This document shows, in pieces, positions 39,962 through 56,996 of a stretch of 57,905 bases of DNA. Source of the DNA: an uncultured bacterium (GTDB lineage Bacteria; Verrucomicrobiota; Kiritimatiellia; RFP12; UBA3636); assembly GCA_902793555.1 (NCBI GenBank), contig CADBEF010000049.1, positions 1 to 57,905 of the forward strand, read 5' to 3'. The position numbers and the translations under genes are program-made. The first letter of the stretch is position 1, and each line of letters starts with the position of its first letter. A model generated the notes under the pieces. It ran no database searches, had not been told where the DNA came from, and saw nothing but the letters and a program-made list of their open reading frames with translations.

Positions 39962-41388
39962 TCGAAGAACACCTCTATCGCAAAAAGGCCCTCGGCGCCT
40001 GGCTCGGCAAGGCCGTCGGCGGAACGCTCGGCGCCCCGTGGGAGGGCTGCCGCGGACCGCTCGCGCTCACCTTCTACGACCCCGTCCCGACGGACATGGT
40101 CCCGAACGACGACGTCGACCTGCAGGTCGTCTGGGCGTGCCGCCTCGCGACGGACTGGAAGGGCGTCGTCTCGTACGCGAACTTCTCCGACGCCTGGCAG
40201 CGCAACATCGGCTTCGCGCTCGACGAGTACGGCGTCGCGAAGCGCAACCTCGCGCGCGGCATCCCCGCGCCGCACTCGGGCGGCGCGGCGATCCGCTCGG
40301 AGATCTGGGCGCTGCTCGCGCCCGGGGACCCCGCCACGGCGGCGCGCCTCGCGCGCGTCGACGCCTCCGTCGACCACGCGGGCGCCGGCGTGCACGCCGA
40401 GCAGTTCCTCGCGGCGCTCGAGTCCGCGCTCTTCGCCACGTCCGACCTCCGCGCCGCGATCGCCGCGGGCCTCGCGCAGATCCCGTCCGATTCGCGCCTC
40501 GCCCGCGCGATCGCCGACACGATCCGCCTCTGCGACGGGGGCGGCGACATCGCGTCCGTCCGCGCCGCGATCCTCCGAGACCGCGGCAGCGAGAACTTCA
40601 CGGACGTCTCGATGAACCTCTCGTTCGAGGTCGCGGCGCTCCTGCTCGGCGGCGGCGACTTCGCGAAGACCATCTGCCTCGCCGTGAACTGCGGGCGCGA
40701 CGCGGACTGCACCGGCGCCACCGTCGGCGCGATCATGGGCCTCCGCGACCCGGACGCGATTCCGGACGAGTGGCTCCGGCCCATCGGCCGCTCGCTCGTC
40801 CTCAACGAAGGCATCGCGGGCATCGAGCCGCCGCCGACGCTCGACGCGCTCACGGACCTGATCGCCTCGCTGCGCGGCCGCGTTTCGATCGACGACGCCG
40901 AGCCGCCGCGCCCCGACCTCTCGCGCTTCGCGATCCGCTGCCGGCGCGGCCTGTACCGCCCGTGGTTCGCCTACGACTGCCTCCGCACGCGCCCGGAGGA
41001 GCGGCCCCTTTCCGAGGAGGTCCTCCTCCCCGGCAACGTCTCGACCGTCGACTTCTCCGGCCTTCCGCCGGAGTCGCTCCTGCTGCTCGAGACGGACCTG
41101 ACGCTCCCCGCCGGGCGCGACGTCCTGCTGCTCGTGAGCACGACCGCGGACTTCCGCGCGTGGCTCGACGGCGAGCCCGTCCTCGGCCAGGAATGCGGCC
41201 CGTTCGTCCCGGCGTTCCACCGCACGCCGGCCAACCAGCGCAAGGCGCTCCGCCTCGCCGCCGGCGTCCACAAGCTCCGCATCGGCCTCGCGCCGGCGGG
41301 GGAGGGGATGGCCTCGGCGCCGCTCGCCTTCGGCCTCGCCGACCCCGCCGACTCCGCCTGGCTGCCCGACTCGATCTACGCCCGCTAG
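39958..41388 (+). CDS. ADP-ribosylglycohydrolase-family protein with a C-terminal extension
   Basis: ALGAWLGKAVGGTLGAPWEG and VNCGRDADCTGATVGAIMG are the characteristic N- and C-terminal metal-site blocks of the family. Confidence 0.85.
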   Translation: MIEEHLYRKKALGAWLGKAVGGTLGAPWEGCRGPLALTFYDPVPTDMVPNDDVDLQVVWACRLATDWKGVVSYANFSDAWQRNIGFALDEYGVAKRNLARGIPAPHSGGAAIRSEIWALLAPGDPATAARLARVDASVDHAGAGVHAEQFLAALESALFATSDLRAAIAAGLAQIPSDSRLARAIADTIRLCDGGGDIASVRAAILRDRGSENFTDVSMNLSFEVAALLLGGGDFAKTICLAVNCGRDADCTGATVGAIMGLRDPDAIPDEWLRPIGRSLVLNEGIAGIEPPPTLDALTDLIASLRGRVSIDDAEPPRPDLSRFAIRCRRGLYRPWFAYDCLRTRPEERPLSEEVLLPGNVSTVDFSGLPPESLLLLETDLTLPAGRDVLLLVSTTADFRAWLDGEPVLGQECGPFVPAFHRTPANQRKALRLAAGVHKLRIGLAPAGEGMASAPLAFGLADPADSAWLPDSIYAR

Positions 41389-41420
41389 GCCGGTTCCGGG
41401 AAGGCCGTTGCCGTTTCCGG

Positions 41421-41437
41421 CGGGACGGGGCGTCCCG
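41421..41437 (+). terminator. short hairpin CGGGACG-GGG-CGTCCCG followed by GGCTTT
   Basis: 7-bp stem 33 nt after the stop of 39958..41388. Weak U-tract. Confidence 0.3.
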
Positions 41438-41663
41438 GGCTTTCAACCGGGCTCTCCGCGGGGGACTCATGTCCTCCGCGGCTGAATTTGATCCACGGCG
41501 CGATTGGAAACCGCGCCGGCCGAATTACAACTTTTATTACGGTCGGACAATTGGATTTCCAAGTAGTTCGAACATGGCGAAAAGTCGGGACGGCCGGGTT
41601 GATTCGGGCGGATGGGTTTGGTAGACTGGCGTGCGTAGCGGTCCGGCCCCGCCGGTCGCCGCC

Positions 41664-41773
41664 CGAAAATTTTACATTTCCGTGACAATTCGAAAATCGG
41701 TTTCTGCTAGAATCCCCCGCCGTGCGACCACCTCCCACCTCTAACCTCTAGCCCCTAGCCCCAAAATACCGCC
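41664..41773 (+). promoter_or_regulatory. conserved promoter+leader block, copy 1 (TTTACA..GTGACAAT..TGCTAGAAT, C-rich leader)
   Basis: CGAAAATTTTACATTTCCGTGACAATTCGAAAATCGGTTTCTGCTAGAATCCCCCGCCGTGCGACCACCTCC.., TAGAAT 41708-41713. Near-identical copies at 46347 and 48400. Contains heptamers CCTCCCA CCTCTAA CCTCTAG CCCCTAG CCCCAAA (41731-41765). Confidence 0.65.
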
Positions 41774-43252
41774 ATGAACAAACTTGCCCTCTTCGTCCCC
41801 CTTCTCGCCCTCGCCGCCGCGCCGGCGCGCGCCGAAGACCCCGCCACGAACGCGCCGGTCGGGGAAATCGAAGGTCCGATTTCCGTTTTTCCGCCCAAGC
41901 CGAAGGAAATCCAAGAAGTCGTCGCCGTCCATGGCCGGGGCCTACGGAGTCCCCGCGCCCGCGGACCGGGCGAACAGGCCCGCAATCTTGCACGCTGGGG
42001 CGCAGGCGCGAGCAGTCCCGCCGTCCTCCGCGCGCTGCGCTGGCTCAAGACGCAGCAGCTAGACGACGGTTCCTGGCCCGGCAACCCCGTCGCCTCCACT
42101 GCCCTCGCGCTCTGGACCTACCTCGACCACGGCGATCTTCCCGGCGGCGACGCCGAATTCGGTCCGACCGTCGAGCGCGCGGTGCGGTTCCTGGCCGAGG
42201 ACGTCGATCCGGAGTCCGGCCTCTTCCGTTCCGCGCACGGAGAGCCCTTCGCGCAACCGCTCGGCTTTTTCGCGCTCGCCCTCTACGTCAAGGAGACGTC
42301 GAATCCTGTCGCCCGGGAGGCCGCCGCGGCCGCCAGCCGTCCGCTCTTCGCCGGACAGCGCCCCGACGGTGCCTGGAACGCCGACCCGCTCGACCCTTCG
42401 CCGGACGGTCTCCGCAACCTCCGCTCGACCGTCTGGTGCGCGCTCGCGCTCCGCGGCGCGCTGCAGCGGGGTTTTGACTTCGGCCCGTCCGAGGAGGATG
42501 CCGTCCGCCGCGCCTTCGGCGCCGTCGCGTCCTTTCTGGACCCCGCCACGGGCGCGGTGCGCCGTCCCGACGGGACCGCCGACCCTGCCACGGCCGCCGC
42601 CGCGTTCGCCCTGGACGAATTCGACCGCGACGATCCGATCGCGAAGAAGGCCGTCGCCTTTCTCGCCCCCTGCACCGTCTTCTGGACGGCGTGGGAGGGC
42701 CCGCAACCCTGGACCGCGGGAGACGCCCCCGTCCGCGACTGGTTCTTCGTCACCTGTGCAAAATACGGCACGAACCCCGATTTTCCCCGCTGGAACAAGT
42801 GCTTCTTGCCGGAATTTCTCAAACGCCAGACCATCGTCAAAGCCGCGGAAAGCGGCTACGAGGACGCGGAAGGGACTCCCCGCGACATCGCCTGGTGGGA
42901 CTCCCCGTCCGCGGAGGAAAGGGGCGTCGGCTCCGGCGGTTCCGTCCTGCCCTGCAAACGGTGGCGCGGCGGCGAATCCGTTGACGGGGAAACAACCCTC
43001 GGAGACCGCGTCCGCGACACCTGCCTCTGCGCGCTCGCGCTGATGGTCTACTACTCCAACCCGCCCGCCGCTTCCCATTTTGAAGAAGAAGTCTCCATCC
43101 TCCGACCGAAGAAATCCGACGACATCCCCGTCTCCGTCCACAGGAAGCCCGAACTCAAAGGAAGCGACATCCGCGTCATGCGCAAGCCGCACCCCGCCAC
43201 GCCCGCGTCCCACGCGGAAACCGCGGAGGGCGCGAAGGAGCCCTCCCCGTGA
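41774..43252 (+). CDS. secreted prenyltransferase/squalene-oxidase-repeat (alpha/alpha-toroid) protein with family leader and tail
   Basis: MNKLALFVPLLALAAAPARAEDPATNAP.. Toroid-repeat motifs ALRWLKTQQLDDGSW, RPLFAGQRPDGAWN. Ends ..HPATPASHAETAEGAKEPSP. Confidence 0.85.
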   Translation: MNKLALFVPLLALAAAPARAEDPATNAPVGEIEGPISVFPPKPKEIQEVVAVHGRGLRSPRARGPGEQARNLARWGAGASSPAVLRALRWLKTQQLDDGSWPGNPVASTALALWTYLDHGDLPGGDAEFGPTVERAVRFLAEDVDPESGLFRSAHGEPFAQPLGFFALALYVKETSNPVAREAAAAASRPLFAGQRPDGAWNADPLDPSPDGLRNLRSTVWCALALRGALQRGFDFGPSEEDAVRRAFGAVASFLDPATGAVRRPDGTADPATAAAAFALDEFDRDDPIAKKAVAFLAPCTVFWTAWEGPQPWTAGDAPVRDWFFVTCAKYGTNPDFPRWNKCFLPEFLKRQTIVKAAESGYEDAEGTPRDIAWWDSPSAEERGVGSGGSVLPCKRWRGGESVDGETTLGDRVRDTCLCALALMVYYSNPPAASHFEEEVSILRPKKSDDIPVSVHRKPELKGSDIRVMRKPHPATPASHAETAEGAKEPSP

Positions 43253-43257
43253 ACCCT

Positions 43258-43320
43258 CTTGCCCGCGAGCGGCAAAGCCGCGACACCCGGCCGCAGCCGG
43301 CGTGGCGGCACCCCGCCCAC
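43258..43320 (+). repeat. 63-nt intergenic repeat R1 (copy 1), three consecutive hairpins
   Basis: CTTGCCCGCGAGCGGCAAAGCCGCGACACCCGGCCGCAGCCGGCGTGGCGG.., repeated at 48284-48349. Hairpins GCGGC-AAA-GCCGC and CCGGC-CGCA-GCCGG, plus a degenerate family 1 palindrome. Confidence 0.8.
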
Positions 43321-43362
43321 AACCACTAACCACTAACCACTAACCACTAACCACTAACCACT
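43321..43362 (+). repeat. perfect heptanucleotide repeat (AACCACT)x6
   Basis: Six exact units, ending 25 nt upstream of ATG 43388. Confidence 0.95.
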
Positions 43363-43387
43363 GCCCTTGACCCCGCCCCCGCCCGCC

Positions 43388-44653
43388 ATGAAACGCCTCG
43401 CCCTCCTCCTCCCCCTCCTCGCCCTCGCCGCCGCGCCGGCGCGCGCGGACTCCTTCTTCGTTCGTTACGGCGACGACTACGTGCTGACGCCCGAAACCGA
43501 GGAGACGTACCGCTTCTGGACGCGGACGCAATATTCTCCGGCCGTCCTCGGCATCGGTCCGGACAAGATCCGCTTCACCGTCGGCGTCCCGCGGACGCTG
43601 GACGGCGCAAAGTTCGCCAAGGCCCGGATCGGCCTGTGGAGCAAGCCGGGACGGGACGCGCGGCACGACTTGTTCGACGCGTTCGAGACGGACATGCGGA
43701 CCGTTCCGTGCGGATCGGCCATGCTCGAGTTCTATTTCACCTGCTCCACGCAGTTTCTTGACCGGGCGTGCGTCGTCGTCCTCTACGACCGGCGGGTCGC
43801 GGAACGCGAGGACCCCGACGGGGTCTACGAGTTCTTCGACTACGACTGCGACCGCTACATCCTGCCGCTTGACAGCTACGCCGCGAACCGGATATGGGAG
43901 CGGCAATGCGACGTGATCGGCGACCGCTTCGAAGAGCCTGCCGTCACGTGCCTCGCGCTCGACACGGAAAGTCTTGCCGCCTCCTACCGCGAAACCCCTG
44001 CGGAGACGGCGTCGCGGATCGGGAAGATGGTCGACCGGTTCGAAGCGTTGCGCGGCCGCGTCGATCCGTCCGAGACGGCGTTCCTCGAGGCCGTCTCCTA
44101 CATGCAGCGGCATTGCCGGTTCTACCTGGCGGAGGAGGACGTCCGCGCCGCCGAAGAAGAGCGCGCACGCGGCATCTTTCCCGCCGGAACCTACACGAAC
44201 GACTTCCCCGCCGTCATCTTCCGCGTCTACCGGGGGAAAGCGACGGTGTCCGGCCCCGTTCCCGGCCGGCCGCAGGAAAACCTGGACGTGCCGGACCGGC
44301 TCGGCGGCGTCCCCGTGGCGTCCGTCGAATCGGATGCGTTCGCGGACTGCGCGGATCTCCGGTCCGTATCCCTCCCGGACTCCCTCCGCTCGGTCGGATT
44401 CCGCGCGTTCCTCGGTTGCACGAACCTGACCAACGTCGTCGTCGGGGCGGGCCTAAAGGTCGTCGAATTCGACGCGTTTTCGCGTTGCCCGAACCTCGCG
44501 GCGGTGCGCATCGCCGCGACGAACGCGACGATCTACGCCAACGCCTTCCGGACCGAAGACGGCAAGGCCCCGGCCGTCTTCGAAGCCGGCGGCGTCCCGT
44601 CCGAGCCGCCCGCCTACAAGCCCGACGACGATGACGAGGAAATCGATGAATAA
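43388..44653 (+). CDS. secreted protein with C-terminal BspA-type leucine-rich repeats, family signal peptide
   Basis: MKRLALLLPLLALAAAPARA.. The C-terminal third, ..VASVESDAFADCADLRSVSLPDSLRSVGFRAFLGCTNLTNVVVGAGLKVVEFDAFSRCPNLAAVRI.., is LRR_5/BspA-like. Acidic end PDDDDEEIDE. Confidence 0.8.
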   Translation: MKRLALLLPLLALAAAPARADSFFVRYGDDYVLTPETEETYRFWTRTQYSPAVLGIGPDKIRFTVGVPRTLDGAKFAKARIGLWSKPGRDARHDLFDAFETDMRTVPCGSAMLEFYFTCSTQFLDRACVVVLYDRRVAEREDPDGVYEFFDYDCDRYILPLDSYAANRIWERQCDVIGDRFEEPAVTCLALDTESLAASYRETPAETASRIGKMVDRFEALRGRVDPSETAFLEAVSYMQRHCRFYLAEEDVRAAEEERARGIFPAGTYTNDFPAVIFRVYRGKATVSGPVPGRPQENLDVPDRLGGVPVASVESDAFADCADLRSVSLPDSLRSVGFRAFLGCTNLTNVVVGAGLKVVEFDAFSRCPNLAAVRIAATNATIYANAFRTEDGKAPAVFEAGGVPSEPPAYKPDDDDEEIDE

Positions 44654-44685
44654 GCCCGCACACCCCGCCACGCCCTAGCACCCCT

Positions 44686-44730
44686 CCGCTCCGCGCGGGC
44701 GCGGCAAAGCCGCCGCCCGCCGCGGAGCGG
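44686..44730 (+). terminator. long GC hairpin (about 20-bp stem, AAA loop) after CDS 43388..44653
   Basis: CCGCTCCGCGCGGGCGCGGC-AAA-GCCGCCGCCCGCCGCGGAGCGG, flanked on both sides by CCCCGCCACGCC. No U-tract. Confidence 0.45.
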
Positions 44731-44754
44731 CCTTCCCGAATTCCCCGCCACGCC

Positions 44755-44787
44755 GCATTCATCATTCAGCATTCATCATTCAGCATT
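44755..44787 (+). repeat. 14-nt tandem repeat GCATTCATCATTCA x2.4
   Basis: Units 44755-44768 and 44769-44782 plus partial 44783-44787, ending 19 nt upstream of ATG 44807. Confidence 0.9.
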
Positions 44788-44806
44788 GACCCCGCCCCCG
44801 CCCGCA

Positions 44807-45796
44807 ATGAAACGCCTCGCCCTCCTCCTCCCCCTCCTCGCCCTCGCCGCCGCACCCGTGCGCGCCGAAGACCCCGCCACGAACGATCCCGTTGGCGTCG
44901 GCATTGGCGCGCCGGGCCCGGTATTCGGCGAAGGGGTCACGCCCGATCCGAACCTGATGTTCGTCTGGGAAGAGGCCCTCTGGGTCGGAGTTCTCTACTC
45001 CGCTTCGATCGCAGTGGCCGACATCGACTTTTCCGCGCTCGCCGGCGATAGCCATGAAAGGAAATACATCGAGCTTCCCTTCGTCGTCCGGGATTGTCTC
45101 AAGGGCTCTCTCCCGGGCACGAACCTCGTTCTCAAGGTTTGGCCGGAGGATCAAAAGGAGATGAAGGCATTGCACGCCTACTCTTCGACCGCTTCCACGA
45201 ACGGTTCGGCGCTTCTCTTCCTCGTCCGTCCTTTCGAGGAATCGAGCCGCGAGTGCTTCCTTGTAAGTGAATACCGATACGCGATCCGGCGCGCGGACGA
45301 GAAGTCGATCGCCGAAACGAAGCGCGAAATCGGCGCCCAGCTGCGTGCATTGGAGGCATTCGACCGGCTTGTGTCTCCCGAATCGCTGCCGCACTGGTCC
45401 GCGGTTTCCAATGCCGTCGCCGAACTGACGATCGACGCGGACCACCAATCCAGATCCGTTGACGCCATTCTCGACCTCGGCATCGAGGCGGTTCCCGCGC
45501 TCATCGCCCTCATGGACGATCGCCGTGAGCTCCCCGTCAAAAGCATCTCTCTCGAGAATTCGCCAGGACATTGGGAGGCCTGTCGGCATTACGGTCCCCA
45601 AACGGTCGTCGACCTTGTGGACGCCCTCGCCGACCATTTCGTGAAAATCGGCCTGGTTTCCGTCATGAACGGGGGAACGGAACAGAATCGGCGGCAAGCG
45701 GTTGTCCGGTGGAAGCTCCTCCTGATTCGGTGGCTTGAGGAAAACCGAACGTCCGGCAAGTTCCTGAAGCCCGTTCTGGTCGGAAGGTTTGACTAG
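44807..45796 (+). CDS. secreted hypothetical protein with HEAT-like segment, family signal peptide
   Basis: MKRLALLLPLLALAAAPVRAEDPATNDPVG.. HEAT/PBS-lyase-like AILDLGIEAVPALIALMDDRR. Visibly lower G+C than its neighbours. No family tail. Confidence 0.75.
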   Translation: MKRLALLLPLLALAAAPVRAEDPATNDPVGVGIGAPGPVFGEGVTPDPNLMFVWEEALWVGVLYSASIAVADIDFSALAGDSHERKYIELPFVVRDCLKGSLPGTNLVLKVWPEDQKEMKALHAYSSTASTNGSALLFLVRPFEESSRECFLVSEYRYAIRRADEKSIAETKREIGAQLRALEAFDRLVSPESLPHWSAVSNAVAELTIDADHQSRSVDAILDLGIEAVPALIALMDDRRELPVKSISLENSPGHWEACRHYGPQTVVDLVDALADHFVKIGLVSVMNGGTEQNRRQAVVRWKLLLIRWLEENRTSGKFLKPVLVGRFD

Positions 45797-45856
45797 CCGT
45801 GGAGCGGACGAGTGGGGATGCCTCGCGGCAGTCTCGCTCTTGATGCGGAGCATGAA

Positions 45857-45917
45857 CATTGTCCACCAGCTCCCATTGCCACCCATGTCCGCCAACGTAA
45901 ATGCCAATCCAAGTCCC
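45857..45917 (+). repeat. about 60-nt TTGTCCACC/ATGCCAA element, copy 1
   Basis: CATTGTCCACCAGCTCCCATTGCCACCCATGTCCGCCAACGTAAATGCCAATCCAAGTCCC. About 90% identical by eye to 46831-46890. Confidence 0.8.
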
Positions 45918-45991
45918 CTGTCATTCCGAGCTAGAAAAACAAGCTGTATGGGTGTTGATTTTTTAAATATGTTCAAAAATACCCCGTTAAC

Positions 45992-46020
45992 TTGACTTTT
46001 CGGCTCGTTTCGACTAAACT
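45992..46020 (+). promoter_or_regulatory. canonical sigma70-like promoter TTGACT-N17-TAAACT, 7 nt before ATG 46028
   Basis: GTTAACTTGACTTTT..TAAACT. The same GTTAACTTGACTTTT box is at 49619. Confidence 0.6.
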
Positions 46021-46027
46021 CCGCGCC

Positions 46028-46311
46028 ATGAACTTCTACAAACGCGAGAACTACCTCCGCAAGATTCGCGGATTCTACGACGACACCGGACTGATCAAGG
46101 TCATCTCCGGGGTTCGCCGATGCGGCAAGTCCAGGCCTGCATGACCGTCGCCGCGTCCCGCGAGACCGAGGACCGCGAATACGCGCCGCTGGAGCGCATC
46201 CGGGACAACTTCCCCAAATACGTCCTCACCCGCAACGACCCGATCCAGCGCCGCGGCGGCATCCTCCACCGGAACCTCCCGCAGCTGATGTCCGCCGGCG
46301 AGGATTTCTAG
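46028..46311 (+). pseudogene. AAA+/DUF4143 ATPase gene with a large internal deletion
   Basis: N-terminus MNFYKRENYLRKIRGFYDDTGLIKVISGVRRCGKS then stop (46142-46144). Read in the next frame, QACMTVAASRETEDREYAPLERIRDNFPKYVLTRNDPIQRRGGILHRNL matches the last ~55 aa of 49661..50896 (YVQVAMTIADPETEAREFAPFSKIRDNYPKILLTLDPLLQRRDGIRHLNL). Confidence 0.8.
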
Positions 46312-46346
46312 CTTCGGGCGGGCGCGGCGCCGCCGCCCCGCCCGAC

Positions 46347-46448
46347 CGAAATTTTACATTTCCGTGACAATTCGAAAATCGATTCCTGCTAGAATCCCCC
46401 GCCGTACAACCGCCTACCACCTCGAACCACCACCCCCAAAACACCGCC
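46347..46448 (+). promoter_or_regulatory. conserved promoter+leader block, copy 2
   Basis: CGAAATTTTACATTTCCGTGACAATTCGAAAATCGATTCCTGCTAGAATCCCCCGCCGTACAACC.., TAGAAT 46390-46395. Confidence 0.65.
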
Positions 46449-46823
46449 ATGAACGACAAAACCCGAATCCGCCTCTCGACCGTCTTCGTCTGGTCTCTTC
46501 TCGCCGTCGTTGCGCTCGTCTTCCTCGCCTGGGCCGCCTCCGCCTTCTTCGGTTCGACCGACGGCGCGACCGACTGGCGCGGACTGATCCCGATGGCGAT
46601 GGCGCTCGCCATCCCCTGCGCACTCGTTGCGGCCGCAATCTTCATCCCGCTCTCCCGTCGCCGCTACCGTCGCGAATCGCAACGGCGGATCGACGCCGCC
46701 CGCGTGGCGCTGGCCGACCGGGCTAAAGTCGGTCCTTCGACGGCCGATCCGAAAGACCTCCGCTTCGCCCGCCCCGCCGACGCCGACCATCCAGCTTGGC
46801 ATTACACCGGTTCGAAAGACTGA
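46449..46823 (+). CDS. small membrane protein (two predicted TM helices), hypothetical
   Basis: Driven by the conserved promoter block. Hydrophobic stretches LSTVFVWSLLAVVALVFLAWAASAFF and LIPMAMALAIPCALVAAAIFIPL followed by RRRYRR. Confidence 0.65.
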   Translation: MNDKTRIRLSTVFVWSLLAVVALVFLAWAASAFFGSTDGATDWRGLIPMAMALAIPCALVAAAIFIPLSRRRYRRESQRRIDAARVALADRAKVGPSTADPKDLRFARPADADHPAWHYTGSKD

Positions 46824-46830
46824 CGTTTCT

Positions 46831-46964
46831 CTTGTCCATCAACTCCCATTGCCACCCATGTCCACCAACGCAAATGCCAATCCAAATCCCGCCCGGCTTC
46901 CGGTTTCATTGACATTGTCATTGTTGGCATTGTCGATTGGTGGACATTGAGCGTTGGTGGACAA
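46831..46964. repeat. TTGTCCACC/ATGCCAA element copy 2 plus an inverted partner (long imperfect hairpin, MITE-like)
   Basis: Direct part 46831-46890. The inverted part 46907-46964 contains TTGGCATT, TTGGTGGACAT and GCGTTGGTGGACAA, reverse complements of AATGCCAA, ATGTCCACCAA and TTGTCCACCAACGC. Confidence 0.75.
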
Positions 46965-46997
46965 TCCCGAAAACCCCGCCACGAAAGAAAACACGCC

Positions 46998-47765
46998 ATG
47001 CACCGCCTCGCCCTCCTCCTCCCCCTCCTCGCGCTCGCCGCCGCGCCGGCACGCGCCGCAGACCCTGTCACGAACGCGGTGCTGGCGTCGAAAGACGATT
47101 CCGGAAAAATCATTCTCTGTGGAAACGATGGTTCTGTTGTTCCGTTCAAGCTAAGAATCGTCACTGCTTCAAAGGGCCCCGAATGGTGGATGGCGCTTTG
47201 GCCGCCTGCATTTATCTCACGAGCAATTTATGTTGATGATGTCATCGATGAAACACGATTCTTTTTGGGGGAATTGCCCGTTTTTCCTTCGCGGCTTTCT
47301 TCTCTTCGGTTTACATTCCTTGCCAACAACATCCCAACTACAACGATTCCGGAATCCATCGATCATTTTCCGGAAAGCAAAGTAATCGTTGACGCATTGT
47401 TCAATACCTTGAATGCATCGAACAAGACGACAAGAGCGGATGAAGGGCTCGTTGTGGTTACTCTGGAAAGGGACAATTCTGGATTCAAGTCGGGCTATGC
47501 TTGCTACATGCGTTCCGCAGCTGCTTGTTTTTCTGGTTTTGACGACTGGCTTGCCAATCATACTGAGTCCTTTGCGCCAGACAGAAACGCCATCAACAAT
47601 GCGTCAGAGTGGGTTTACCAGGAACTTAAAGCACGAGAAGCGTTCTTGGCGGCTTCCTCAAGAGAAATGCCTGTCGGAACAAACGCCATTCTGTCATCGA
47701 ACCCCGCCACGAACGCGCCCGCCCATCACGCGGAATCCGCGGAGGGCGCGGAGAATCGGGAATGA
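46998..47765 (+). CDS. secreted hypothetical protein with AT-rich core between family leader and family tail
   Basis: MHRLALLLPLLALAAAPARAADPVTNAV.. Core without recognisable domain. Ends ..SSNPATNAPAHHAESAEGAENRE. Confidence 0.75.
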   Translation: MHRLALLLPLLALAAAPARAADPVTNAVLASKDDSGKIILCGNDGSVVPFKLRIVTASKGPEWWMALWPPAFISRAIYVDDVIDETRFFLGELPVFPSRLSSLRFTFLANNIPTTTIPESIDHFPESKVIVDALFNTLNASNKTTRADEGLVVVTLERDNSGFKSGYACYMRSAAACFSGFDDWLANHTESFAPDRNAINNASEWVYQELKAREAFLAASSREMPVGTNAILSSNPATNAPAHHAESAEGAENRE

Positions 47766-47851
47766 AACACGGAGCCGCGCAGAGCCGGCCGAAGCGCCGA
47801 GATTCCGCGCCGCGTCCTTTTCGGCGCTCTCGCCGGGTTGGAGCGAGGGGA

Positions 47852-47911
47852 TTAGAGCGACAGATCCGAGTGTGTCCCGGTGTCCGCGAGAACAAGAACG
47901 AGAATGCTCAT
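47852..47911 (-). pseudogene. remnant (19 codons) of a RelE/YafQ-type toxin gene
   Basis: The ATG overlaps the antitoxin stop (ATGA) and reads MSILVLVLADTGTHSDLSL-stop. ..TGTHSDL. is the usual C-terminal end of RelE/YafQ toxins, and the rest is missing. Confidence 0.55.
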
Positions 47912-48180
47912 TTGTTTCCCATGAACTCTTCGATCTTCGCGGGATCGGTGCAGGTGGGCGCGTCGGGGTCGTGCGCGACGGCCTTGGCTTCCTCCAATGC
48001 GGCCGCAAGGCGCGCCGCCTTGCGCTGGCGCGTCAGCTTGAACGGGATTTCCCCGTCCGCAAGGCACTTCTTGAAGAAGCACGTGATGGCCGTCGTGAGG
48101 GTCATGCCGATGTCATCGAAGAACTCTTCGGCATCGGCCTTGAGCCCGTTGTCCATCCGGATGGTGAGGGAAGTCGTCAT
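47908..48180 (-). CDS. relB: RelB/DinJ-family antitoxin
   Basis: MTTSLTIRMDNGLKADAEEFFDDIGMTLTTAITCFFKKCLADGEIPFKL.. is the ribbon-helix-helix RelB/DinJ N-terminus. These are the last 90 codons of the spurious 545-aa ORF 47908..49545. Confidence 0.8.
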   Translation of the reverse strand: MTTSLTIRMDNGLKADAEEFFDDIGMTLTTAITCFFKKCLADGEIPFKLTRQRKAARLAAALEEAKAVAHDPDAPTCTDPAKIEEFMGNK

Positions 48181-48283
48181 TGCAGATTGCTCCTTTTGTC
48201 GTAGAACAACGTGCATTCTACGAAAATCCGCGTGCAATGTCAATGCGGATCGACTGCTTCGCTTGAAGCCTGTCCCCGAAACA

Positions 48284-48349
48284 CTTGCCCGCGAGCGGCG
48301 AAGCCGCGACACCCGGCCGCAGCCGGCGTGGCGGAACACCGCCACGCCG
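48284..48349 (+). repeat. intergenic repeat R1 (copy 2) ending in a perfect 11-bp palindrome
   Basis: CTTGCCCGCGAGCGGCGAAGCCGCGACACCCGGCCGCAGCCGGCGTGGCGG-AACA-CCGCCACGCCG. Confidence 0.8.
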
Positions 48350-48399
48350 TGCAACGCCGCCCAATCCCGGACACCCCGCCACGCGGAGCGACCCCGCCA

Positions 48400-48489
48400 C
48401 GAAAATTTTACATTCCCATGACATTTCGAAAATCGGTTTCTGCTAGAATCCCCCGCCGTACGACCACCTCCAATCCCCAAAACCTCGCC
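48400..48489 (+). promoter_or_regulatory. conserved promoter+leader block, copy 3
   Basis: CGAAAATTTTACATTCCCATGACATTTCGAAAATCGGTTTCTGCTAGAATCCCCCGCCGTACGACCACCTCC.., TAGAAT 48444-48449. Confidence 0.65.
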
Positions 48490-49542
48490 ATGAAACGCCG
48501 CGCCCTTCTCCTTTCCCTCCTCGCCCTCGCGCCGCTCGCCGTAGGTGCGGCGGGGCTCCGTCTTGTCGACGCCGAAGAACTCGCGAAGCTCGACGAAGAA
48601 CGCGCCAAAACCGGCGACGAACCCGCCGTGACGGTCGACGGAACCGTCGTGGCGACGAAAAACCGGTTCCGGTTCGTCGTCGATCCGACCCGCAGCCGGA
48701 ATCTCGGAACCGTGGACTTTCTCCTCCAATGGGCGCCTCGCGAACCTTTCGTCGACGAGCCCTCTCCGTTCGCTTGGACGGTGGCCGGGCAATACGCGGA
48801 CGACCGCTTCGCGGCCCGATGCATCGCAGACGCCTTCCTTCTGGACCGCGAAGCGGAGAAACGGGGGTTCGAGTCGGGAGAAACGATGGTCCGGGACGGC
48901 ATCGCCGAACCGACCGAAGAAGAACTGCGCGCCGCGTGGGCGGCCATTCTGGCCGAAAACCCGTCGGAGGGACGCATCGGGGAAACGGTCGAGGCGTCCC
49001 ACCTCCTGGTCCTCCTTCCCGAAGGCGCTTCGGCCGACGACGACGCGGCCGCCCAGAAGAAAGCCAAGGCCCTCCGGGAACGCATTCTGGCCGGAGAGGC
49101 GTTCGCGGCCGTCGCGCGGGAAGCGTCCGACTGTCCGTCGAAAGCCCGCGGAGGATCGCTCGGATCGTTCACGCGCGGACAGATGGTTGCGGCGTTCGAA
49201 GAGGCCGCGTTTTCGCAGCCGGTCGGCGTCGTGGGGGAACCGGTGCGGACCGAATACGGCTGGCACTTGATTCTCGTGACGAAACGGGAACCAGCGCGCG
49301 AACGCCGTTTCGAGGAAGTCCGCGACGATCTCAAGGCCGATTTGTTCGCCCAAAAGCTCGAAGACCGCATCGAACGGCTCCTCGAACCGCTGCGGAAGGC
49401 CGCCGTCGTCCAATACGCGCCCGGCTACGATCCCGCGGAGCCTTCGGTTTTGTATTGGAACCCCGCCACGCCGGGCCCCGCCACGAACGCGCCCGCCGCG
49501 GATGAACCTCACGCAGAGAGCGCGGAGAACGCGGAGAATTGA
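48490..49542 (+). CDS. secreted parvulin-type peptidyl-prolyl isomerase (SurA/PrsA-like) with family tail
   Basis: MKRRALLLSLLALAPLAVGA.. PpiC block ASHLLVLL..FAAVAREASDCPSKARGGSLGSFTRGQMVAAFEEAAF..VRTEYGWHLILV. Ends ..NPATPGPATNAPAADEPHAESAENAEN. Confidence 0.85.
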   Translation: MKRRALLLSLLALAPLAVGAAGLRLVDAEELAKLDEERAKTGDEPAVTVDGTVVATKNRFRFVVDPTRSRNLGTVDFLLQWAPREPFVDEPSPFAWTVAGQYADDRFAARCIADAFLLDREAEKRGFESGETMVRDGIAEPTEEELRAAWAAILAENPSEGRIGETVEASHLLVLLPEGASADDDAAAQKKAKALRERILAGEAFAAVAREASDCPSKARGGSLGSFTRGQMVAAFEEAAFSQPVGVVGEPVRTEYGWHLILVTKREPARERRFEEVRDDLKADLFAQKLEDRIERLLEPLRKAAVVQYAPGYDPAEPSVLYWNPATPGPATNAPAADEPHAESAENAEN

Positions 49543-49573
49543 CATTGTCCACCGACTTCCGTTGCCATAAACG
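49543..49573 (+). repeat. TTGTCCACC element, partial copy 3, directly after the stop of 48490..49542
   Basis: CATTGTCCACCGACTTCCGTTGCCATAAACG. The CCGTTGCCAT part recurs at the ATPase start (49653-49663). Confidence 0.6.
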
Positions 49574-49623
49574 CATGATAACGATGCTATTTTTCATGAA
49601 AGCTTGATTTTAGTGTCGTTAAC

Positions 49624-49652
49624 TTGACTTTTTCTCATGCTTTCGGTAGATT
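49624..49652 (+). promoter_or_regulatory. canonical sigma70-like promoter TTGACT-N17-TAGATT, 8 nt before ATG 49661
   Basis: GTTAACTTGACTTTTT..TAGATT in an AT-rich island. Confidence 0.6.
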
Positions 49653-49660
49653 CCGTTGCC

Positions 49661-50896
49661 ATGAAACAACCCATCTTCCACCGCGAGGCGTATTTGCGCA
49701 AACTCCGGCCGTTCTACCGGTCGGACTTGATCAAGGTCATCACCGGCATCCGCCGTTGCGGCAAATCCTGCCTGCTGCTCTCCGTGATGGAGGAACTCCG
49801 GCGCGAGGGCGTTCCGGCGGAGAACATCGTCTACGTCAATCTCGACAAGCGGGGCTTCAAGAACATCCGCCGTCCGGAGCAGCTCGAGGAGGCCGTCGCC
49901 TCGCGCCTTCCCGCGAAGGCGGACCAGGTCTACCTGTTTGTCGACGAAGTCCAGAACGTTGAGGACTTCGAACCCGTGCTCAACGCGTTCCGGGAGGAAG
50001 GCGTCTCGATCTTCGTCACGGGCTCCAACTCCTACCTGCTCGGCGGCGAGCTGGCGACCAAGCTCACGGGCCGCCACGTCGAGTTCGACCTCTTCCCGCT
50101 TTCGTTCCGCGAATGGCTCGACATGCGGGCGTTCCTCGGCAAGCCCTCCGTTGCGGACCGGAACGCCGCCTTCGCGGAATACGTCCGGAGCGGCGGACTG
50201 CCGAAAACGCTCGAGTTCGACGATCCGGAGGCCCGCGAAACCTATGTCGAAAGCGTCGTGGAGCAGATCCTCCACAAGGACGTCCGCCGGCGCTTCAAGA
50301 TCCGCAACCGGCCCGTCTTCGACAAGGTCCGGACCTATCTCGTGAACAACTTCGGCGCGCCCACGAGCCTCCCGAACCTCGAGGAGGAGTTCCGGAAGCG
50401 GCAGGGCCTGCCCGTCACGCAGCGGACGCTCCGGCGGTACCTGGACATCCTGGAGAAGGCCCGCATCCTGTATCCGTGCCCGCGGTTCGACCTCAAATCC
50501 CGCAAGTCCCTCCGCGGCGGCGGAAAGTTCTACCTGGCCGACACCGGACTCTACTTCGCGGCGAACACGGACCACCGGATCAACTACGGCCCCGTTCTCG
50601 AGAACCTCGTTTTCGCCCATCTCCGGAGCGAAGGATTCCGGGTGTCCGTCGGACGGATCGGCGACCTCGAATGCGACTTCATCGTGCGGCGCCGCGAAGA
50701 CTACGCCTATGTCCAGGTCGCAATGACGATCGCCGACCCCGAAACCGAGGCGCGCGAATTCGCGCCCTTCTCGAAAATCCGCGACAACTACCCGAAAATC
50801 CTGCTCACGCTCGACCCCCTCCTGCAGCGCCGCGACGGCATCCGGCACCTCAACCTGCTCGACGTCCTGACCGGACGGGAAACGCTGTTCCCGTAA
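49661..50896 (+). CDS. AAA+ ATPase of the AAA_14/DUF4143 family (intact copy)
   Basis: Walker A TGIRRCGKSCLL, Walker B LFVDEVQ, C-terminal LECDFIV nuclease-like motif. ATG 49661 is inside ORF 49637..50896. Confidence 0.9.
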   Translation: MKQPIFHREAYLRKLRPFYRSDLIKVITGIRRCGKSCLLLSVMEELRREGVPAENIVYVNLDKRGFKNIRRPEQLEEAVASRLPAKADQVYLFVDEVQNVEDFEPVLNAFREEGVSIFVTGSNSYLLGGELATKLTGRHVEFDLFPLSFREWLDMRAFLGKPSVADRNAAFAEYVRSGGLPKTLEFDDPEARETYVESVVEQILHKDVRRRFKIRNRPVFDKVRTYLVNNFGAPTSLPNLEEEFRKRQGLPVTQRTLRRYLDILEKARILYPCPRFDLKSRKSLRGGGKFYLADTGLYFAANTDHRINYGPVLENLVFAHLRSEGFRVSVGRIGDLECDFIVRRREDYAYVQVAMTIADPETEAREFAPFSKIRDNYPKILLTLDPLLQRRDGIRHLNLLDVLTGRETLFP

Positions 50897-50954
50897 GCCG
50901 CCGCGGAAAACCGGAACGGACGGCTCCTTTACCAACCAGCGGAACGGAAACGAA

Positions 50955-53900
50955 ATGAAACGCATCTCCTTCGCCCAATGGATCGCGGGCGCGCTCGCCG
51001 CGCTCGCGACGACGGCCGCCGCGGGCGGCTTCGATTTCGACAAGGCCTGGCGACAGGTCGACGCGGCGGCCCGGAAGGACCTGCCGCGCACGGTCACGAA
51101 CCTCGTCGCGGAGATCGAGCGCGAGGCGGTCGCGGCGGAGCGCTGGCCCGACGCGGCGCGCGCGTTCCTCGCGCGCGAACAGGCGATGCAGGCGTTCGCC
51201 GACGAGCAGCCCGCCGACTGGCTCCCCGCCTTCGCCGCGTCGGTCGACGCGCAGCCGGCGCCGCTCCAGGCCGTCCTGCAGCTGCACCTCGCGCACACCT
51301 ATTTCGAAAACTCGGAGAATTCGAGCCGCTGGGGCTGGGGCGGCGCGGCGCCGACGAAGCTCGACGACGCGGCCGCGGCGGACAAGAGGCCGCCGTGGTC
51401 GCCCGAGAAGATCGCCGCGACGCTCGAGGCGCAATTCGCCAAGGTCTTCGCCCGCTCCGACGAGCTCCAGGCGATGAAGCTCGCCGACTGGGCGACGCTC
51501 TTCAAACCGGGCCGCCCCGCGTCCTACACCCCCACGCTCTTCGATTTCGCCGTCCACGACGCGATCCGGTTCTTCTACGGCCGGGCCCTCCGCGACCGGA
51601 CGCTCGAGAAGGGCCTCGCCCTCTTCGACCGCCTGATCGCGTTCCACGAGGCGGACGGCAACCTCGACGCGCTCGCGATGGCCGAGCTGAAGCGCGCGGA
51701 ATACGTCCGGGACTTCGACCAGAAGCCCGAGAAGGAGCGCGAGGCGGCGTTCGAGGCGTTCCTCGACGCCTTCCTCGTGCGCTTCGAGGGCCGGACGGAG
51801 GCCGTCGCGTTCGGCGCGGCCGCCAAGGCCGAGCGCCTGCGCAGGCGGGGCGAGCTCGTCGCCGCGCACGACCTCGCGGCCGACTACGCGGCGAAGTGGC
51901 CGAAGGCCCCGGGCGGCGTCCAGTGCGACAACATCGCCGACGAAATCGAAGCCCCGCACTTTTCCTTCGAGACGGAGCGCAACTGGTGCGCCCCGTGGCC
52001 GGAGATCACGGTCTACGTGCGCAATCTGAGCGAAGTCCATTTCCGCCTCGTCCCCGTCACGTTCGAGGAGCTCGTCGAGGACAAGTCGATGGGCAGCGAC
52101 ACCTACTACGAGGCCATCCCGAAACTGAAGGGGACGTATCGGGACCGCAAGCCCGCGAAGGAGTGGACGGAGACGTTCGAGCCCCGGACGGACTACACCG
52201 CGCAGTCCGGTTCGTTCGCCGTCCCCGCCGATCTCGCGCCCGGCCACTACGTCCTCTTCGCGGCGCTGAACGACAAGTTCGGCGCCGACAAGCGGCCGCT
52301 CTTCGCGCGATACGTCACGGTGACGACCCTGGCGCTCGTGCTGCGGACCGGCCACGGCGCTTTCGGCGGCACGGTCTACGACGCCGAATCCGGCGAACCG
52401 GTCGCCGGCGCGAGCGTGGAGCTCTGGGGCCTTCCCAAGAGCGGCGGCCAACGCAAAAAGCGGCTCGAGTCCTGCACGACGGACGAGGACGGGAACTTCG
52501 TCGCCGAAATCGAAACAGACGGCGGCTATTCGCGCTCGCGCTCCGTCCGCGTCGTGAAGGACGGCATGGAGGTCCTTTCGCTTGGCTGGAACAATTCCCC
52601 CGGCTTCGCCGACAGGGAGGACCGCAACTACGAGTTCGTCGAGCTCTTCACGGACCGGTCGCTCTACCGCCCCGGCCAGGCGATCCACGTGAAGGGCATC
52701 GCCTACCATGCCTACCCGCCCATGCGCGACTTCCACACGTGGGGGAACGAGTCGGTCGTCCTCACGCTCGTCGACCCGAACGGCAAGGAGGTCGCCTCAA
52801 AGCGCCTCCGGACGAACAAGTGGGGTTCGTTCGCCCACACCTTCACGGCGCCGTCCGACCGCCTGACCGGCGCCTACCGCGTGCAGGCGCGCAGCCTGCC
52901 GCGCGCCGCCGTCGGCGCCACCGGCGTGGCGGACAAGACCGTGAACGTCGAGGAATACAAGCGGCCGAAGTTCGAGGCGACGCTGGAGAAGGCGGGCGAG
53001 ACGGCGACGCTCGGCGCGCCGGCGACGGTGACCGGCAAGGCGCTCACCTACGCCGGGCCGCCGGTGCAGGGCGCAAAGGTCGCGTGGCACGTGGAGCGCC
53101 GGACGCGCTATCCGGACTGGTTCCGCCGGTTCTGCTGGGACGGCTGGGACGACGACGAGGAGTTCCTCGACGGCGAGCGTTTCGTCGCGGAGGGCGAGGC
53201 GACGACGGACGAGAACGGCGCGTTCACGATCGAGTTCACGCCCGTCGCGGCGCCGACGGCGGACCTCGCGGGCGACCCGTCGTTCGAGTTCACCGTGACG
53301 GCGACCGTCGTCGACGAAACCGGCGAGGCGCGCATGGCGGAGGCGTCCTTCGAGATCGGCACGGTGGCCTGGCGCGCGGAGGTCGGGACGGAGGGCGAGT
53401 GGCACACGGCGGGCAAGCCCGTCGCGGCGAAGGTGTCGCTCGCGTCGCTCGCCGGCGCGGCCGTCCCCGTGAAGGGCACGCTCAAGGTCTTCCGGCTCCA
53501 GGCGCCGGCGCGGCCCGTCCGCAAGCCCGCCAACCGCGATCGCCCCACCTTCCAGCCAGAGAACGGCCCCTGGGACTGGACGGCCTGGGAGCCGGGCGAG
53601 GAGGTCCTCTCGCGCGAAATCGCGGGCGAGAAGGCCCAGCCGTGGACGGGCGAGCTCGACCTCGGCGTCGGCGCCTACCGGCTCGTCTTCGAGGCGACGG
53701 ACCCGAACGGAAAGACCGTGAAGGACCTGGACACCGTCTGCGTCTTCGACCCGGCGGCGAAGGGGCTCGGGATCGCCGTGCCGGAGCTCTTCCGCGTCGA
53801 GGCGCACACGGTGAAGGTCGGGGGGACGATGCGCGTCTACTGGGGCACGGGCTACGAAACCGGCTACTGCCGCGTCCGGGTCTCCAGCAACGGCAAGACG

Positions 53901-56900: not shown

Positions 56901-56911
56901 GCGTGAAGTAG
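50955..56911 (+). pseudogene. large bacterial alpha-2-macroglobulin-family protein with thioester motif, disrupted by a 1-nt frameshift (about 55125-55131) and a 67-bp tandem duplication
   Basis: Signal peptide MKRISFAQWIAGALAALATTAAAGG, long MG-domain-type body and thioester region LSLPYLMEFPHECCEQTFSRYYAN. Three consecutive frames (50955.., 55132.., 55697..56911) join into one ~1960-aa protein if one base and one duplicate copy are removed. Confidence 0.8.
55621..55754 (+). repeat. perfect 67-bp tandem duplication inside the alpha-2-macroglobulin gene
   Basis: CTCGCGGCGATGGACTACCCGGACTTCTTCGCGGACGCGACGAAGGCGCTCGACCGCGAGGTCGCGG at 55621-55687 and again at 55688-55754. AAMDYPDFFADATKALDREVAA is encoded twice. 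Confidence 0.95.
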
Positions 56912-56938
56912 CCGGGCGCCGCGCCGGATTGACTTGAA

Positions 56939-56996
56939 TTTACCCCAATTTGCCCGATTCGGGAAGTAGACAGCGGGCGGGGCGGTCTGGTAGAAT
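56939..56996 (+). promoter_or_regulatory. promoter-like element TTTACC-N46-TGGTAGAAT for 57027..
   Basis: TTTACC 56939-56944 followed by CCAATTTGCCCGATTCG (like 3757 and 198). TAGAAT 56991-56996. Confidence 0.5.

Follow-up and report, generated by a model that had tools for sequence, protein, structure and literature searches.

Organization of the five-gene array

Five genes on the + strand of an uncultured Kiritimatiellia bacterium (GenBank assembly GCA_902793555.1, contig CADBEF010000049.1), lying between positions 41774 and 49542, were found to share their beginnings and, in three cases, their ends around unrelated cores. The stretch analyzed, called the window, comprises 57,905 nt. The five genes (g1 to g5) form a modular, recombining architecture, as seen in their anatomy, distribution, conservation at the DNA level and mosaicism, in empty and fused forms, in a foreign core and in the island in which they lie. 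The array is probably best explained as a tandem set of chimeric genes, in which unrelated cores were joined to recombining, lineage-specific DNA end modules within a strain-variable island. The coding part of the 5' module, which begins with a signal peptide, is termed the head, and the acidic C-terminal end encoded by the 3' module is termed the tail. The features are collected in Table 1.

Table 1. Features of the array and its island (window coordinates; ORF, open reading frame; LRR, leucine-rich repeat; PPIase, peptidyl-prolyl isomerase)
Feature	Position	Strand	Description
P block copy 1	41656-41773	+	promoter-like TGACA, 20 nt, TGCTAGAAT; then G-poor leader with CCTCTAA-type heptamers
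g1	41774-43252	+	492 aa; head 41774-41857 (MNKLALFVPLLALAAAPARAEDPATNAP); cyclase-like core; K-type tail 43186-43252 (..HPATPASHAETAEGAKEPSP)
g1/g2 junction, non-coding	43253-43387	+	K spacer 43258-43317 with GC hairpin arms; (AACCACT)x6 43321-43362; leader TTGACCCCGCCCCCGCCCGCC
g2	43388-44653	+	421 aa; head limited to the signal peptide (MKRLALLLPLLALAAAPARA|DSFF); LRR core of BspA type; acidic end of its own, family tail absent
g2/g3 intergenic region	44654-44806	+	CCCCGCCACG at 44663 and 44743; hairpin block 44696-44735; CATTCAT/CATTCAG heptamers 44757-44785; leader TTGACCCCGCCCCCGCCCGCA
g3	44807-45796	+	329 aa; head 44807-44885 (..APVRAEDPATNDP); core matching no family, GC 61%; tail-less
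Downstream block and ATPase remnant	45845-46311	+	block TTGTCCACCAGCTCCCATTGCCACC.. 45845-45917, then AAA_14/DUF4143 ATPase remnant 46020-46311
P block copy 2 and gX	46338-46823	+	P block 46338-46448; gX 46449-46823, 124-aa membrane-protein ORF without head or tail
N-type junction, non-coding part	46818-46997	+	TTGTCCATCAACTCCCATTGCCACC block, then GGTGGACAATCCCGAAAACCCCGCCACGAAAGAAAACACGCC leader
g4	46998-47765	+	255 aa; head 46998-47078 (MHRLALLLPLLALAAAPARAADPVTNA); compositionally foreign core; tail 47695-47765 (..NPATNAPAHHAESAEGAENRE)
Orphan relB antitoxin gene	47908-48180	-	Pfam RelB; convergent with g4; promoter-like TTGACA-17-TAGAAT 48243-48215
Spacer-to-g5 stretch	48284-48489	+	K spacer copy 48284-48343; CCCCGCCACG at 48374 and 48392; P block copy 3 48392-48489
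g5	48490-49542	+	350 aa; diverged head (MKRRALLLSLLALAPLAVGA); parvulin PPIase core; N-type tail 49455-49542 (..NPATPGPATNAPAADEPHAESAENAEN)
AAA_14/DUF4143 ATPase gene adjoining the array	49637-50896	+	Pfam
Strain-variable island	41384-56965		15.6 kb: array, relB, ATPase remnant, AAA_14/DUF4143 ATPase, alpha-2-macroglobulin (A2M) gene

The five gene starts and N-termini given in the initial annotation, which had been made from the sequence letters, were confirmed by the ORF listing and by self-comparison. The first approximately 60–85 nt of the genes belong to one direct-repeat family (five copies, 83 nt) with 66–94% identity. The heads of g2 and g3 are linked by a 47-nt exact match, the longest exact repeat inside the array, and the reported 29-nt exact block is present at 43394, 44813 and 47004, in g2, g3 and g4. 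The signal peptides had been called near-identical; in that of g5, only 13 of 20 residues match the consensus. As the other exported proteins of the window have ordinary and dissimilar signal peptides, the likeness is not a compositional effect of 68% G+C. The acidic tails of g1, g4 and g5 were as quoted, and CCCCGCCACGAACGCGCC was found at 41839, 47702 and 49476, as had been noted. The block of approximately 100 nt described as promoter plus leader (P block) occurs three times, but its second copy precedes gX and none of the five genes. The shared ends are real and far beyond chance.

The same gene order was present on two rumen-metagenome contigs of the European Nucleotide Archive (ENA), and the window and both contigs are identical over 41.3–51 kb. 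The two contigs differ from one another by single-nucleotide polymorphisms (SNPs) upstream of the array; thus, they represent independent assemblies. Misassembly is unlikely because three assemblies are identical and the longest internal exact repeat is 47 nt.

The claim that the cores are unrelated was borne out. The g2 and g5 cores matched Pfam LRR_5 (E = 1e-13) and Rotamase (PPIC, E = 2e-26), in agreement with the BspA-type LRR and parvulin assignments, BLASTP among the five cores showed no similarity, and the core GC ranged from 48% to 69% across the array. Moreover, 87 long head-bearing proteins collected from this and other loci fall into 44 BLAST core clusters. The alpha/alpha toroid proposed for g1 corresponded to sub-threshold squalene-cyclase-like matches only, and a relative of this core in locus L011 is 36% identical. 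The HEAT-like segment proposed for g3 found no support; neither the g3 nor the g4 core matched a family in Pfam or NCBIfam. At other loci, the core families include WG_beta_rep, LysM, Lactamase_B (metallo-beta-lactamase), TPR and Rotamase with or without CBM9, most cores there being familyless.

Structure of the two end modules

The 5' module consists of a leader, ATG, MKRLALLLPLLALAAAPARA and (E/A)DPATNAP. Signals cleaved by signal peptidase I (SPase I) have a positively charged n-region, an h-region of 7–15 hydrophobic residues and small residues at -3 and -1. By inspection, the heads follow this Sec-type layout (MKR / LALLLPLLALAAA / PARA|ED), with a charged n-region, a hydrophobic h-region and A-x-A, and (E/A)DPATNAP stands directly after the predicted cleavage site. 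The lipobox cysteine of lipoprotein signals (SPase II) is absent from all five heads; some recombinant relatives read LAAAGC (L013). The divergence of the head at codon positions 1, 2 and 3 was 0.19, 0.19 and 0.22, respectively, in copies outside the selection by search pattern. In the pattern-selected heads, just 5.6% of sites differ among the wobble positions that the pattern left free in the hydrophobic region.

Judged from sequence, two kinds of leader serve the 5' module, namely, the promoter-like P block containing TGCTAGAAT and G-poor leaders with heptamer repeats. The P block copies at 41656, 46338 and 48392 have a mutual identity of 75–87% (83% for 41644-41755 versus 46325-46437 and 87% for 41664-41753 versus 48400-48489). 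The block also stands upstream of head genes in L016, L018 and L049 and, in other genomes, also upstream of non-family genes, and CTG(C/G)TAGAAT was found again upstream of other operons of the window, at 39138 and 56985. The P block was not called in a sigma-70 consensus scan, its -35-like TGACA sitting 20 nt from TAGAAT. Because the scan fails on this spacing, the promoter status of the block rests on the recurrence of TGCTAGAAT upstream of genes; TGCTAGAAT is plausibly an extended -10-like element giving transcription. The other leader types recur as well. The 40 nt before the g3 ATG (44767-44806) are identical to those before the head gene of L017, the whole g2/g3 region being 87% identical to that locus, and the N-type region at 46818-46997 is 81–84% identical to head-gene leaders of L006 and L013, its leader type occurring also in L008 and L013.

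Tandem heptamers were observed in the G-poor leaders, namely, (AACCACT)x6 at 43321-43362, CATTCAT/CATTCAG at 44757-44785 and CCTCTAA/G at 41738-41760. Their copy number varies, three versus five, between loci with otherwise matching flanks (L034 and L065), and L011 contains further arrays of GGTCGCA, GACTTGC and CATTCTG. These arrays may tune expression.

The 3' module is composed of a PATNAP linker, acidic, minisatellite-like (H)AEx repeats, a GAKEPAP or AEN end, a stop codon and a GC-rich hairpin spacer. In the alignment of tails and downstream DNA, identity passed through the TGA into a spacer of approximately 65–110 nt (ACCCTCTTGCCCGCGAGCGGCGAAGCCGCGACACCCGGCCGCAGCCGGCGTGGCGG-loop-CCGCCACGCCG...) and often ran on into the leader, the ATG and the next head. 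As conservation crosses the stop codon into the hairpin spacer, the repeat is best viewed as a junction between consecutive cores. In tandem arrays, the 3' and 5' modules meet as a junction of approximately 260 nt, in the order linker, tail, stop, hairpin, leader, signal peptide and linker. At least three interchangeable junction types were distinguished: K, with a KEPAP tail and the ACCCTCTTGCCCGCGAGCGGCGAAGCCGCGACACCCGGCCGCAGCCGGCGTGGCGG/CCGCCACGCCG spacer; N, with an AEN tail, a TTGTCCACC/TTGTGGACAATTG block and a CCCCGCCACGAAAGGAAAC leader; and E, with a GAE tail and another hairpin or a P block.

The tail comprises 13–25 acidic, low-complexity residues, with neither a hydrophobic segment nor a folded domain. 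In 102 distinct K-type tails, the final seven codons were 94–100% conserved at all three codon positions, and conservation fell with distance from the spacer. When the five proteins and an empty head-tail ORF were searched against NCBIfam and Pfam, no model was found for head or tail (in NCBIfam, none even at E <= 1), and an Rfam scan of the whole window gave no family at gathering score. The K spacers at 43258-43317 and 48284-48343 are 95% identical. The second copy forms a perfect hairpin, GGCGTGGCGG/CCGCCACGCC, and has no tail upstream; its order, spacer then P block, is also found in L015 and L016. The stem is kept by compensatory changes (GGCGTGGCGG/CCGCCACGCC versus GGCGCGGCGG/CCGCGCC), and the L021 spacer has a perfect 11-bp stem. 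Minimum free energy folding of the g1/g2 junction was no more stable than that of shuffles (z = -0.46), the right arm of the hairpin being degraded in this copy. The arm GGCGTGGCGG is predicted to have three possible partners, namely, the local hairpin arm, the upstream PATN-coding segment and a stretch of the downstream head complementary to it. As a tentative possibility with rather little in its favour, such alternative pairing could couple tail translation to termination or read-through. The downstream block TTGTCCACCAGCTCCCATTGCCACC at 45845-45917 recurs at 46818-46890 and 49531-49567.

Short motifs are common to both modules and to non-coding DNA. The 12-mer CCCCGCCACGAA has six copies, all on the + strand and all within the array region, compared with none in 100 shuffles; the copies at 46974 and 48392 fall within leader DNA that is non-coding. 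The 3' arm of the spacer hairpin carries CCCCGCCACG, the motif coding PAT(N) at the borders of both modules. Tails translate the 13-mer CACGCGGAGTCCG as HAES, and a head variant uses another frame and gives ..TRSP; closely related sequence is also non-coding. Perfect or near-perfect palindromes, CGTGGCGGGGT-N5-ACCCCGCCACG, were observed at gene ends of the window at 3702-3741, 11158-11183 and 18224-18255. Their right arm is the same 10-mer that codes PAT(N) at the module borders. As short GC-rich hairpins with many copies at gene ends, the spacer hairpins and these palindromes resemble repetitive extragenic palindromes (REP); unlike REP, the repeat of the junction reaches into coding sequence. 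Miniature inverted-repeat transposable elements have terminal inverted repeats and variable target-site duplications; at the junction, no terminal inverted repeats were found, and every copy ends in the same direct repeat. L011 contains, at 3363-3563, a 60-nt tandem array with the HAESAE-coding motif (TCTCACGCAGAGAGCGCAGAGCC...) and, nearby at 671-1010, 24/48-nt arrays, all apparently non-coding.

Distribution, traces of recombination and the surrounding island

One genome per species, for 185,579 species, was scanned with a head pattern in which every wobble position was left free (N). The pattern gave 18 matches on 15 contigs, solely in five metagenome-assembled genomes (MAGs) of ruminant-gut Kiritimatiellae / 'Verrucomicrobia'. 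The proteins start with MKRLALLLPLLALAAAPARA(E/A)DPATNAP, many end with ..PATNAPA..HAESAEGAKEPAP or ..AENAEN, and their cores differ. Their genes follow one another on one strand in tandem arrays, as many as seven of them within 8 kb, and arrays of this kind occur in MAGs from different hosts. A scan of metagenomes with the spacer core added 90+ loci with 114 spacers. The initial annotation had called for a search of relatives, and the shared ends do recur in relatives, in five other MAGs and the 90+ metagenome loci.

The following counts refer to all loci fetched in the genome and metagenome scans, which are MAG or metagenome contigs. Of 148 ORFs bearing a head, 118 were distinct and complete; 29 distinct head-bearing remnants of <=52 aa were orphan heads or coreless head-tail ORFs. 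A tail was present on 57 of the 87 long head-bearing proteins and absent from 30. Approximately 95% of the 114 K spacers were directly preceded by a ..HA(E/D)SA(E/D)GAKEPAP-stop tail, and a canonical head followed only approximately 30% of them. Among the tail-bearing ORFs with a defined 5' boundary (n = 140), 66 had a head, 34 another hydrophobic N-terminus and 40 neither, some of these 40 being artefacts. A single scaffold supplying both ends, as originally pictured, is contradicted by these counts: approximately 34% of the long head-bearing proteins are tail-less, and about half of the tail-bearing ORFs have a head. The 5' and 3' modules are thus two independent DNA-level end modules.

The tail had also been assigned to a scaffold that supplies export. 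Two proteins that clearly are not exported and have no signal peptide, a type IV toxin (AbiEii) and a protein with ankyrin repeats, end with ..HAES(A/G)EGAKEPAP; the tail is also found on multi-pass membrane proteins, and tail or PATNAP sequences lie inside multidomain proteins as linkers. Because it occurs on signal-peptide-less proteins and as an internal linker, the tail is not an export-coupled sorting signal, and it is read as the translated part of a promiscuous 3' module.

Traces of recombination were found in several forms. In the coreless ORFs P0001-P0004 (43–58 aa), the head is joined to the tail at PATNAP, and these ORFs lie in arrays between normal junctions; they surfaced in a protein search with an artificial head-plus-tail chimera, which returned short ORFs only. 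Orphan heads are cut variously, after ARA, PAT, PATN or PATNAP, and some run into DNA that elsewhere is non-coding leader. Tail joints fall anywhere down to KEPAP. In the fusion L007_5390, ..ESHAESAET is joined to a domain that is the first mature domain behind the head in L014 and L005. Compared with its ortholog in L014 (RUG10674), g5 is 97–100% identical over 48524-48913, approximately 55% over the PPIase domain and approximately 90% at the C-end, and the ortholog has a different tail type and entirely different flanks.

By its composition and its only relative, the core of g4 is a captured foreign core. The G+C content of the g4 head, core and tail was 77%, 48% and 70%, and that of third codon positions (GC3) was 0.89, 0.47 and 0.77, respectively. 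A word-based homologue search with the core found its own cluster only. In an exhaustive HMMER search of 1.84 billion representatives, one relative was found, P0151, which matches nothing but the core (residues 30–219, 37% identity, E = 3e-24), a protein with the lipoprotein signal MKKFIILLIPCFIGC and no tail, encoded by a gene of 42% G+C. P0148, a g4 allele that is 98% identical, ends in GAKEAGP and not in GAENRE. The composition of the g4 core, the other ends of P0151 and the coreless head-tail ORFs agree with the original suggestion that passengers had been recombined between the ends.

Relatives of the window (L116-L118, 93% nucleotide identity in the flanks, and L121, 88%) join the sequence up to 41383, an ADP-ribosylglycohydrolase (ARH) gene, straight to 56966. 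As close relatives join the flanks directly, 41384-56965 is a strain-variable island. A 9–10-nt direct repeat, TTC(C)GGGAAG, itself palindromic, was noted at both island edges (41392-41401 and 56957-56965). In the more distant relative L119 (2640-4243), a degenerate head start (ATGAAACGCCTC...) lies downstream of the ARH gene, followed by two opposite-strand low-GC secreted-protein genes.

Within the island, the internally deleted ATPase remnant after g3 matches 49728-49768 and 50711-50856 of its intact paralogue after g5; a further AAA_14/DUF4143 ATPase site of the window is listed at 4871-6118. Among 93 non-family ORFs neighbouring arrays elsewhere, 12 encode AAA_14/DUF4143 ATPases and six AbiEii toxins. 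No integrase or transposase was found in the Pfam-scanned window ORFs or among the 25 commonest of the 72 Pfam families matched by these 93 ORFs. The relB gene has a near-consensus promoter, and its toxin partner was not recognisable; a HipA-family toxin kinase gene lies at 9538-11097 on the - strand. Given HipA, relB and the AbiEii genes of related loci, toxin-antitoxin genes are common around such regions.

Further observations concern the window itself. A tandem duplication of 67–71 nt at 55618-55755 (copies 98.6% identical) frameshifts the A2M gene, and the ENA contig L001, without the duplication, has an intact A2M of 1977 aa. At 40281, the ARH gene has lost 30 nt in frame compared with both ENA contigs. 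Two paralogous multidomain genes of very large size (20631-37244; 2512 and 2320 aa) contain GDSL lipase, esterase, Ig-like, NPCBM and alpha-galactosidase domains and many internal repeats of approximately 300 nt with 60–80% identity.

Comparison with described systems and interpretation

The system had been introduced as one not recognised among described systems, which needs qualification for its 5' half. The closest described analogue of that half is the erp (OspE/F-related), or upstream-homology-box, family of Borrelia burgdorferi. The erp genes have in common a conserved promoter/operator, a leader peptide and the first residues of the mature protein, and continue into often-recombining parts of many independent origins; likewise, the present genes share their upstream DNA, their leader peptide and the start of the mature protein, and the mature parts that follow are unrelated and recombining. 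However, erp genes encode lipoproteins, occupy one allelic site per cp32 prophage and have no shared 3' module. In the present case, the lipobox is absent, the Sec signal is of the non-lipoprotein type, the arrays are tandem, chromosomal and set in a non-phage island, the 3' module (tail, stop and hairpin) is independent, and coreless and fused forms occur.

The vsp/vlp families of Mycoplasma combine a highly conserved 5' region and signal peptide with mature regions that vary. The phytoplasma SVM-signal family (Pfam PF12113) similarly has a highly conserved 5' region and signal peptide before variable mature parts, in multigene clusters (PMC8026896). In both of these, unlike here, the mature parts are mostly repeat-variable or small effectors, phase variation proceeds by inversion, and a shared 3' tail or terminator module is absent. 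Contact-dependent inhibition (CDI) and Rhs loci accumulate 'orphan' modules, in which a conserved junction lets homologous recombination swap variable modules and truncated remnants pile up in arrays; however, these systems exchange C-terminal toxin domains and immunity genes, whereas whole cores of unrelated functions are exchanged here. Palindromic elements of Rickettsia (RPE) can sit in frame inside ORFs (reviewed in PMC10969869). The RPE, REP and bacterial interspersed mosaic elements (BIME) are likewise short GC-rich palindromic repeats scattered at gene ends, but the present repeat differs in its fixed reading frame, its stop codon and its partner 5' module encoding a signal peptide. A full-text literature search found no Kiritimatiellae paper describing these modules. 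The features not described for erp, SVM or vsp/vlp are the independent 3' module, the junction architecture in chromosomal arrays, the non-lipoprotein Sec signals, the empty, fused and split forms, and the phylum (PVC, Kiritimatiellae).

In the explanation considered probable, homologous recombination or gene conversion between copies would hold the modules near-identical in >100 genes of several species. Crossovers at short shared motifs, chiefly CCCCGCCACG(AACGCGCC), would lead to module swaps, core deletions, fusions and fissions, and the capture of foreign ORFs. The 5' module would provide transcription, translation from a G-poor, unstructured leader, and Sec export with A-x-A cleavage, and any ORF behind a head would be translated and Sec-exported. 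The 3' module would add a harmless, short, acidic and disordered tail, a stop codon and a hairpin at the mRNA end. We infer Sec export and cleavage and the promoter and terminator activities from motifs and layout; we also infer that recombination is of the RecA type and not site-specific, and that the tail has no specific function.

Several points weigh against this explanation. The module borders of 10–18 nt are short for a RecA-dependent crossover, and the precision with which joints recur at CCCCGCCACG could be a sign of a dedicated enzyme. The near-identity across 'species' could partly come from recent horizontal spread and not from ongoing conversion. In the HAESAE unit, the divergence is 0.4–0.6 at wobble positions compared with about 0.1 at positions 1 and 2, and the tail is nearly always read in one frame; therefore, the tail is under some protein-level constraint, which the explanation does not account for. 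Promoter, terminator and export were read from sequence alone. The data are MAG and metagenome contigs.

A more active role of the junction is a tentative possibility with rather little in its favour: the junction of approximately 260 nt, flanked by CCCCGCCACGAACGCGCC direct repeats, might be a propagating gene-boundary element moved by a hairpin- or motif-specific enzyme, for example, of the RAYT (REP-associated tyrosine transposase) or IS200 type. If true, such an element would split multidomain exported proteins at linkers and fuse neighbours when lost, and captured foreign ORFs would receive from it the signals for expression, export and termination. Bacteria would then have an equivalent of exon shuffling, in which the signal peptide plays the part of an exon.

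In another alternative, head and tail are sorting signals of a dedicated, lineage-specific secretion or surface-attachment pathway and DNA identity is a by-product of recent expansion. Its attraction lies in the frequency of the tail on long head-bearing proteins (57 of 87), in its single frame and mainly wobble variation, and in (E/A)DPATNAP right behind the predicted cleavage site. Many unrelated exported proteins with an N-terminal signal and a C-terminal extension are likewise known from the type IX secretion system (T9SS) and PEP-CTERM systems. The C-terminal domain (CTD) of T9SS cargo is folded, is about 70–100 aa long and sits on Sec-exported proteins. The present tail, however, is short and of low complexity, matches no NCBIfam or Pfam model, and is also carried by signal-peptide-less proteins. 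It likewise lacks the motif, transmembrane helix and basic cluster of PEP-CTERM, being acidic and not hydrophobic, with no NCBIfam match at E <= 1. Moreover, the toxin and ankyrin proteins, the multi-pass membrane proteins and the internal linkers do not suit a sorting signal; breakpoints may leave KEPAP alone, conservation enters non-coding DNA, and head codon positions 1, 2 and 3 diverge equally. A sorting pathway was thus regarded as unlikely.

An integron-like cassette system, in which a recombinase acting at CCCCGCCACGAA or the adjoining hairpin moves cores in frame, was judged quite improbable. Chromosomal integrons (the VCR/attC arrays of Vibrio) consist of same-strand unrelated ORFs parted by a structured, lineage-specific repeat of about 60–140 nt. 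Their attC sites are R''/L''-L'/R' imperfect palindromes with a GTTRRRY core, and recombination takes place there at one fixed position. The present arrays resemble chromosomal integrons in their single strand, in a motif-bearing structured hairpin between cassettes and in the existence of 'empty' sites, and the same 12-mer stands at all module borders, coding and non-coding, on one strand (six versus none expected). Nevertheless, here the repeat encodes the end of one protein and the next signal peptide, and often its own promoter-like block. Joint positions vary at both modules (after ARA, PAT, PATN or PATNAP, and in tails down to KEPAP), the spacer contains no GTT and hence no GTTRRRY-type attC core, many genes have a promoter-like block of their own, and the motif is half of a genome-wide palindrome. 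In addition, neither an IntI tyrosine recombinase nor any other integrase or transposase was seen in the Pfam-scanned window ORFs or in the 25 commonest of the 72 families of the 93 neighbour ORFs.

Plain local tandem duplication of one ancestral secreted-protein gene with a diverged middle would account for adjacent, one-strand genes with similar ends, and segmental duplication has left traces in the ATPase remnant and the repeated downstream block. It is very improbable, being contradicted by cores of different Pfam families or folds without BLAST similarity, by the range of core GC, by ends that are far more alike than any core and are shared with unrelated genes of other genomes, and by a g4 core relative with different ends. 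That contigs were misjoined at the repeated modules, which do occur in many loci of co-occurring strains and mostly on short contigs, is hardly credible, as it is contradicted by a longest exact repeat far under read and k-mer length, by the identity of the array in the window and two ENA assemblies with SNPs elsewhere, and by like arrays in MAGs from different hosts.

With chimeric genes built from recombining end modules as the preferred explanation, the locus displays the intermediate states of turning a new or foreign ORF into an exported protein, which are rarely visible in sequence data. All of them were seen here: a core of foreign composition with native ends, tail-swapped alleles, empty head-tail genes, orphan heads, and fused and split domain versions. 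A recombining 3' DNA element can show up, through its translated part, as a 'shared C-terminal motif' that is not a sorting signal, which calls for caution in the motif-based discovery of secretion systems. For the rumen Kiritimatiellae, which are uncultured and poorly known, the results reveal a large and fast-evolving predicted exported set in strain-variable islands, for which the conserved head DNA offers a practical probe to pull it from metagenomes. This set is likely relevant to interactions with the host, phage or polysaccharides.

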